Of a stretch of DNA of 64,000 nucleotides, positions 32,761 through 35,145 are shown one piece after another (position 1 is the stretch's first letter; each line of letters opens with the position of its first letter). The stretch comes from Rhynchobatus australiae (lineage: Eukaryota), in assembly GCA_034780895.1 (NCBI GenBank), contig JAUZTB010000074.1, positions 26,479,134-26,543,133 of the forward strand. Reading direction: 5' to 3'. The notes beneath the pieces were generated by a model, which was not told where the DNA came from, did not search any database, and saw only the letters and a list, made by a program, of their open reading frames with translations. Made by a program: the position numbers and the translations under genes.

Positions 32761-35068
32761 CTGTAGATGTGACAAGTCTTTATTCAGTACAAAGCAGACA
32801 GGCAGAAGAGAACTGGTGGAAGAATCTCTATGAACTTAAATTACATAAAGTTTTTATACCTTTTAAGTACAGGGATAGCAGCAGGTGATTAAATGTGTTT
32901 AATAGTTACAATTGTACAGTTCACTTCAATATTTTGGGTGTGGACAAATGGCTCCATAGGATTACATTTTTACAATGGGAGCACATCTTAACTGAGAAGA
33001 CCAATTCAGAATATTCAATCACTTTGTTGAAACAAGATAGTTCATGTCAATATTCTACAAGCTTCTGAGTACAAAACCCAGTCATCCTTCTTATACCAGA
33101 GTATTGTGAGGGGTGGCTCTTTGGACAGACAATCACCTTAAAGTATGACTGACAGAACAAACATGATCATGACCTTCCTTGATCTCATTCTAGAAGTTAC
33201 AATGCAGTCCTATTGACATTGCCCTACTGTCTGTATGTTTGGGCACAGCATATGAGAAAGAATGTCTCATGGTCATGCCAGTTTCCAAAGCATTTCTCTT
33301 ATGTATCCTCCTGCTGTGAACCACAGTCAGTGTTGTATCTTTAAGCAGCTGTCCTTGTAATTTCAAAACCTATTACTCCTTGTGGGTTACATTTGAAAGC
33401 ACTTTGAAGGCTGGTTCTTGTCTGTATTAATACCTACACTTTTATACTCAGACTACGGCTGCTGTTCCCCAGCAGCCTGAAAACCTGATTTTACAAGTGC
33501 TGACATCTGCTGATGTTCCATTGCACAATTTTGGATCTTGTTCAGGAGGTTCAGTATTAGAATTGGGAGTTTTTTAAATAAAAGGAGTACTGTTAAAACC
33601 TNNNNNNNNNNNNNNNNNNNNNNNNNNNNNNNNNNNNNNNNNNNNNNNNNNNNNNNNNNNNNNNNNNNNNNNNNNNNNNNNNNNNNNNNNNNNNNNNNNN
33701 NGGATCATTAAATCTAAATGTTACAAACATTTTTTTTTAAACCTCACTGTGCTTTAAGACCAACATGATTAAGTATTTTTCCAAGTTTCACATTGTTATC
33801 TGCTTTTGACCTCCTGGAGATCTGACCTTCACGACCTTTCTGAGCTGTCATTTGTCTGATTTGACAGGCGATTGTATCAAATGCCAAGAACACCATATGC
33901 GTGGAACTTTCAATGGGCTTAATTTTCAACAGCACTGTCAATAAACAATAACTACAACAAAATCTATGGTTGTTCCACAAAAAGAAAACAAAAAAACTTT
34001 TAATATTTTTAATATTACAAATCTTCTGATTTAATAACTGTGACTTCTATGTAAAAAATGCTACAAAATGTTTTTTAAATTCATTATTATTTTCATTCCC
34101 AGTTATAAATACAGCAAGAGCTTATATTAAGGATTTTTCACAATATTTCCTTTGTGACTACATCATATATAAATAATCTTACATTTAATATTAAAACAGA
34201 CTTATGAAAATCCTAACAATCACACAGCATCTACTCTTAGTAAAACTGTAGCAAACAAGGCAGCTATTTTTTGTCATATCATAGCTCTGACCAGTAAAAT
34301 GTTTTTGTTGTTCCAATACATTGAGCTAAGCAACATGAACATATAGTGTGAAAGTTGTCAATGAATTGGAAAACTAATCACTAGCCAGAATAGATCGCAT
34401 AAGTGCAGCATATAAAGTAATATCCTCACCACATTTTAAGAAAGCTTTCACCCAGATTGGTTTCTGAATCCACATGACAACATTATAAATTTAATAGTAT
34501 TGCATGCATGCAACATTATGACAAAATTACATTCAACTTTTCCAATCTCCTTAATTCTCTGAACAATAATGACCTTCCTTCAGGTTTTGTTACAGTGAGC
34601 ATATTTCCTAAAAAGACATTTAATAATAGGAGCTTCTGACAACCAGTTCATGCGCAACAAGCTAAGATTTCATCCTCGAAGAGTGAATAAATTTTCTTTT
34701 TATTTTTATTTGACAAGGATGAATGATTCAATGGTGACATTTTAAAAGGAACTGATCATGGTATTTTATTGCATTCCACTAATTAAATAATTAGCACTTA
34801 AAGCACAACATAGTATAATGTTGCAAGTAGGATCAGCTAAAGGAATGCTGCAGATAACCAATGAGAAATTTAGAAACAAATTTGAAAGCAATACAAGAGA
34901 TAGTGAAGTCAGTGGGGTTTTTGGATAGCTAGATGGACAGATAAATCACTTATGAAAAGTCAGTCTGGGACATATAGATAGATTCATGCTGGGAATTATG
35001 GAAGGAAGCCTTGTTTTGCTAAAAGCAATGGCTCTGGAACATACGAAGTGCTCAGCCTCCTTTGGCTC

Positions 35069-35145
35069 CTGGGTTTGAAAGAAAACATCCGGGTGCGACG
35101 AGCGGGCTACGCCTACAGACGAGTTTTTAAGAAGTTCTTACAAAG
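35069..35145 (+). CDS. MYO1E: Myosin IE exon 18, 5'-truncated as assembled
   Basis: [25 protein letters not shown](R) then AG|gtgaga donor; the expected preceding VKHQVEY codons and acceptor are absent. Confidence 0.9.

Follow-up and report, generated by a model that had tools for sequence, protein, structure and literature searches.

Vertebrate MYO1E is a long-tailed class I myosin in which a motor domain is followed by a TH1 domain and a C-terminal SH3 domain. The RVKHQVEY stretch of the motor is part of what we take to be the SH2 helix, a label used by analogy with myosin II. When DNA is deleted between direct repeats (microhomology-mediated deletion), a single copy survives and everything that separated it from the other is lost; repeats about 20 nt long are known to give rise to such events. 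Biallelic MYO1E variants are described as a cause of focal segmental glomerulosclerosis in people (PMC13026958). A conserved exon can also be partly absent from a draft assembly while the sequencing data of the species hold it, as in the false gene losses of Kim et al. 2022, where 26–60% of genes had at least one false loss in four older assemblies (PMC9516821).

Here we analyse a stretch of 64,000 nt from the ray Rhynchobatus australiae (assembly GCA_034780895.1, contig JAUZTB010000074.1, positions 26,479,134–26,543,133 of the forward strand), referred to as the window, in which exon 18 of MYO1E has lost its acceptor and its first 22 nt. As in a deletion between direct repeats, one copy of a repeat is kept and the stretch between is gone. 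As in the false gene losses, sequencing data of the species hold the missing exon part. Unlike those losses, there is no N at the site: the sequence has collapsed silently where a direct repeat of 21 nt lies, a type that the study does not appear to set apart (PMC9516821). The assembler very probably made a false join at this repeat and lost the intervening DNA, exon 18 being intact in the species.

The gene is laid out in the window as follows.

2091–61813, plus strand: MYO1E exons 7–28 (22 exons), 21 of them whole, without internal stop; 864 of 907 aligned residues equal P0003
30235–30341, plus strand: MYO1E exon 17, 107 nt, phase 2 end after WEES (tblastn with P0003, AG/GT ends, open frame)
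30342–35067, plus strand: intron 17 as assembled, with its 3' end apparently truncated and 100-N runs at 31061–31160 and 33602–33701
35069–35145, plus strand: surviving 77 nt of MYO1E exon 18, starting with LGLKEN, phase-2 end, donor GT at 35146–35147
37987–38131, plus strand: MYO1E exon 19, phase 2 start (tblastn with P0003)

The 22 exons map along P0003, the MYO1E of Mobula birostris, to its last residue in one open frame with 0 internal stops; exons 7–28 minus exon 18 are 95% identical to it. P0003 contains the domains PF00063, PF06017 and PF00018, and the window gene shows the same order of motor, TH1 and SH3 as this nearest listed vertebrate MYO1E. Identity of the exon-10 query is highest to ray MYO1E (100% and 95%), P0003 being the best full match at 100%; two matches of this query rank ahead by E-value, but they are longer records and only 86% and 77% identical. 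By its nearest relatives in sequence and by the motor, TH1 and C-terminal SH3 in one frame, the gene is identified as the ortholog of MYO1E rather than of MYO1F. Exons 2–6 (five exons, residues 2–170) were located further upstream on this scaffold. Four of them match at 96–100%, and the exon-3 hit is at 67% because its alignment runs into the intron. The number given to exon 18 assumes a first exon with the start codon only, upstream of exons 2–6. Intron 15 (24655–24762) is just 108 nt long, and the other introns measure 574–5,816 nt as assembled.

The damage is confined to the start of exon 18. A first-pass annotation, made from the letters of the window, had placed the end of exon 17 at WEES plus AG and the next coding sequence at 35069, and both positions hold, exon 17 being followed by a GT donor. 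It had called the other 21 exons intact, and we find them open with canonical splice sites. Across the chain all 21 donors are canonical, as are 21 of the 22 acceptors; the sole exception is the acceptor of exon 18, whose predicted start at 35047 is preceded by GA, as the annotation had read, and not by AG. The surviving part corresponds to residues 613–635 of P0003 at 100% (tblastn). The annotation's search by eye for VKHQVEY codons on both strands of intron 17 had been negative, and a search of all six frames of the window for the peptides VKHQVEY, HQVEY, QVEY and VEYL likewise returned none; with up to 1 mismatch allowed, a 20-mer taken from the true codons matches nowhere in the whole assembly. 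RVKHQVEY is present in 116 of 120 listed homologs, the remaining 4 being unaligned over the region, and the motif appears near-invariant among these homologs. Set against vertebrate MYO1E, the assembled ray copy alone lacks residues 603–609 (VKHQVEY) and the acceptor, whereas contigs of the same species have both. Among other draft models, the whale-shark MYO1E model P0009 is without residues 511–683 of P0003 and the sturgeon model P0101 without residues 540–635; both miss the same part of MYO1E, by several exons.

Three features mark the junction itself.

35047–35067, plus strand: ordinary intron sequence in place of the first exon codons, covered by intron-side contigs of runs X5, X8 and X12, which match to 35088
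35053–35055, plus strand: in-frame CAG, a poor candidate for a cryptic acceptor (acceptor score −2.3)
35068–35088, plus strand: 21-nt direct repeat and probable collapse point, where a single assembled copy would stand for the intron-17 and exon-18 copies

A decayed duplicate or mutated exon start at 35047–35068 was considered and rejected, 8 of 22 letters agreeing with the true start (by eye, near chance). The in-frame CAG that the annotation had described as weak does exist; the 21 real acceptors, scored leave-one-out, range from −0.3 to 11.8, and of the 301 AG sites in intron 17, 118 do at least as well as this CAG. Skipping exon 18, which was correctly said to keep the frame, would take 33 residues from the motor core. 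The skipped product and the one started at the CAG are both in frame and stop-free.

The intact exon is found in independent sequencing runs. Fourteen public runs matched the window, all in contig form and none on record as RNA, and seven of them were compared (X1–X5, X8 and X12); X6, X7, X9–X11, X13 and X14 lay outside the comparison. X1 bears the same species label, X2 comes from a related organism (B), and X5, X8 and X12 come from organisms D and F in three studies. No contig of X3 or X4 reaches the site, and such blanks carry no weight as evidence. These are Logan contigs, which drop rare variants; contigs show presence and not absence. X1 holds a fraction of 0.85 of the window words, and its 8 aligned pieces, 4,145 letters in all, differ from the window at 3 letters (99.9% identity). 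At this identity X1 belongs to the same species, perhaps to the same animal, and could be the sample that was assembled.

One X1 contig matches 35068–35552 without a difference, preceded by 109 further letters that place nowhere in the window. In the last 30 of these letters a pyrimidine tract is followed by TAG as acceptor, and then by codons completing Arg and encoding V-K-H-Q-V-E-Y in frame with 35069. An X2 contig has the same intact acceptor and VKHQVEY with one silent change, behind 234 unlike letters before 35068; X1 and X2 are the only runs in which the letters before 35068 were read. In both, exon 18 is whole at 99 nt. The annotation had predicted the length of the exon and its 22 missing nucleotides, and both agree exactly with the X1 and X2 contigs and with a paralog on scaffold C70. 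The species thus carries an intact MYO1E exon 18. The annotation had preferred an assembly or sequence lesion and had named an intact RVKHQVEYLGL exon in reads or cDNA as the outcome that would identify an artefact; that exon is present in the X1 and X2 contigs, which supports its preferred explanation. X1 is thin, with a word depth of 3.2–8.3 and breaks between most neighbouring pieces. Its contig crossing 35068 has a depth of 7.2, and its neighbours 6.4 and 5.5.

The site where the contigs depart from the window is a short repeat. In three of the seven runs (X5, X8 and X12) the intron-side contigs agree with the window as far as 35088, beyond the start of the surviving exon part, before continuing with 3,613, 185 and 182 unlike letters, respectively, and exon-side contigs enter at 35068 with 760, 205 and 732 unlike letters before it, all six counts being record length minus aligned end. 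Exon-side contigs begin at 35068 in five of the seven runs (X1, X2, X5, X8 and X12). Since the intron side ends at 35088 and the exon side starts at 35068, those genomes must contain two copies of the stretch 35068–35088, one within intron 17 and the other within exon 18. The window has a single copy. Both copies are seen in the relatives (organisms D and F), and the exon copy alone is seen in organism A, the species of X1. The lost piece measures at least 109 nt in organism A, at least 234 in B, at least 732 in F and at least 3,613 in D. By chance, an exon of 99 nt and a flank of 10 kb would share an exact match of 21 nt about 4e-7 times; this figure presumes an exact intron copy in the relatives, and breaks are also picked out for lying at such repeats. 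The low expectation points to a short duplication of some age as the probable source of the intron copy. Since organisms D and F both have this intron-17 copy, it would be an old exon-like fragment common to several rays. Neither the 21-nt repeat nor the two 100-N runs of intron 17 appear in the first-pass annotation.

The joined intron-exon form of the window is absent from the listed contigs of all seven runs. Of the two sets of run comparisons, one yields no entry for a joint and the other lists just an indel at 35570–35613. This is an ordinary intron indel: organisms D and F have 73 letters there, compared with 41–42 in the window, and X2 also shows small insertions.

The two 100-N runs of intron 17 do not hide the start of exon 18. 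One X5 contig covers 33702–35088 and an X12 contig covers 33991–35088, and both then continue unlike the window. A G-rich low-complexity repeat at 31020–31480 flanks the N run at 31061–31160 and is the likely cause of that gap. The window has 19 N runs, 9 of exactly 100, and some N may be masking; the assembly is fragmented, with 81,522 contigs.

A misplaced or second copy of the exon was sought in the assembly. DNA searches with 34700–35400 and 33702–35068 hit nothing beyond their own locus and a paralog exon on C70. They thus show no second copy and no sign of a left flank that belongs elsewhere; the flank is assigned to this intron indirectly, via the shared repeat. A protein search with the 26 surviving residues gave 13 matches, one of them the site. 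Of the others, the seven inspected are paralog exons with upstream codons of their own. The paralog L005 (G000:C70:32319373-32319450), which is MYO1F-like by resemblance, has an AG acceptor, the same 22-nt VKHQVEY start and the same phase-2 junction; an N run lies close behind its donor. A 30-mer from behind the X8 intron copy has 0 matches in the assembly (up to 2 mismatches) or in the window (up to 3), a weak test with a relative about 5–7% different.

The assembly thus keeps one copy of a two-copy repeat without the stretch between, and the missing piece is absent at the two motifs tried. The join would have arisen in silico, probably where coverage was thin and the assembler worked on a de Bruijn graph with a short k of about 21. 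At a k near 21 the repeat would form one node, and the short true branches could be trimmed away as tips, so that the only remaining path leads from the intron into the exon. The X1 exon-side contig starts just 109 nt before the repeat. In the window species the lost piece would span several kb, as in organism D. A k of 21 is the smallest default in SPAdes and MEGAHIT. It is also the default minimum in SKESA, and multi-k assemblers are described as using short k-mers in thin regions (PMC6172800). The match of repeat length and k is suggestive only. With high confidence, we regard the apparent lesion not as a biological feature but as a local assembly collapse in an ordinary intact MYO1E.

A real deletion between direct repeats leaves the same single-copy scar. 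It is possible, though we consider it unlikely, that the assembly represents a haplotype with a deletion allele, most likely heterozygous, in which replication slippage or microhomology-mediated end joining had acted on the two copies of the 21-nt repeat. The junction as assembled is clean and free of N, and skipping of exon 18 would keep the frame. The listed contigs of X1 also leave a hole of 77 nt (34991–35067) directly before the junction, so that X1 does not show what follows the intron copy in this species, and a short deletion path could drop from contigs. Yet the joined form is found in 0 of 7 runs, the X1 contig crosses 35068 unbroken into the intact exon at ordinary depth, and false exon losses are described as common in draft assemblies (PMC9516821). 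The loss-of-function allele that the first-pass annotation had offered as an alternative divides accordingly: as a lesion of the whole species it fails, and as an individual's deletion allele it is unlikely.

The lesion cannot be fixed in the species, because X1, at 99.9% identity and with the same species label, has the intact exon. A lineage in which exon 18 is skipped, or begun at the CAG, with a remodelled or dead motor, would account for two products that are in frame and stop-free, but the CAG scores under all 21 real acceptors and the surviving part of the exon is unchanged relative to Mobula; we hold this to be highly improbable. General decay into a pseudogene was rejected, given 0 internal stops, canonical sites at all 21 other acceptors and all 21 donors, and exons 2–6 upstream. 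The annotation had further considered a newly split exon with its missing part hidden in a gap, that is, a new intron and a 22-nt micro-exon inside one of the two 100-N runs of intron 17. The X1 and X2 contigs contradict this: VKHQVEY is contiguous there with LGLKEN from 35068 onward, behind the TAG acceptor. Moreover, 35069 is not preceded by AG in the window, and the probability of such a split is negligible.

On the preferred reading of a false join, the lesion has no N and keeps the frame, and automatic annotation would therefore report the exon as skipped or altered, or the gene, falsely, as lost. Other broken exons in this assembly are worth checking for a short direct repeat at the break. 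Were the allele real, it would represent one wild carrier of a likely null MYO1E, of modest interest, with a 33-residue in-frame skip or use of the CAG, either of which would probably cripple the motor. We give little credence to such a natural multi-kb deletion between the old intron-17 snippet and exon 18, removing the acceptor and part of the conserved motor helix; if it did occur, a kidney-filter gene would carry, in the snippet that several rays share, a standing weak spot for mutation. A literature search on myo1e exons in sharks and rays found nothing relevant.

Elsewhere in the window, short ORFs at 11472–11663, 22356–22592 and 62725–63045 each adjoin an N run. All three presumably resemble the 3' end of CR1/L2-type retroelement reverse transcriptases.
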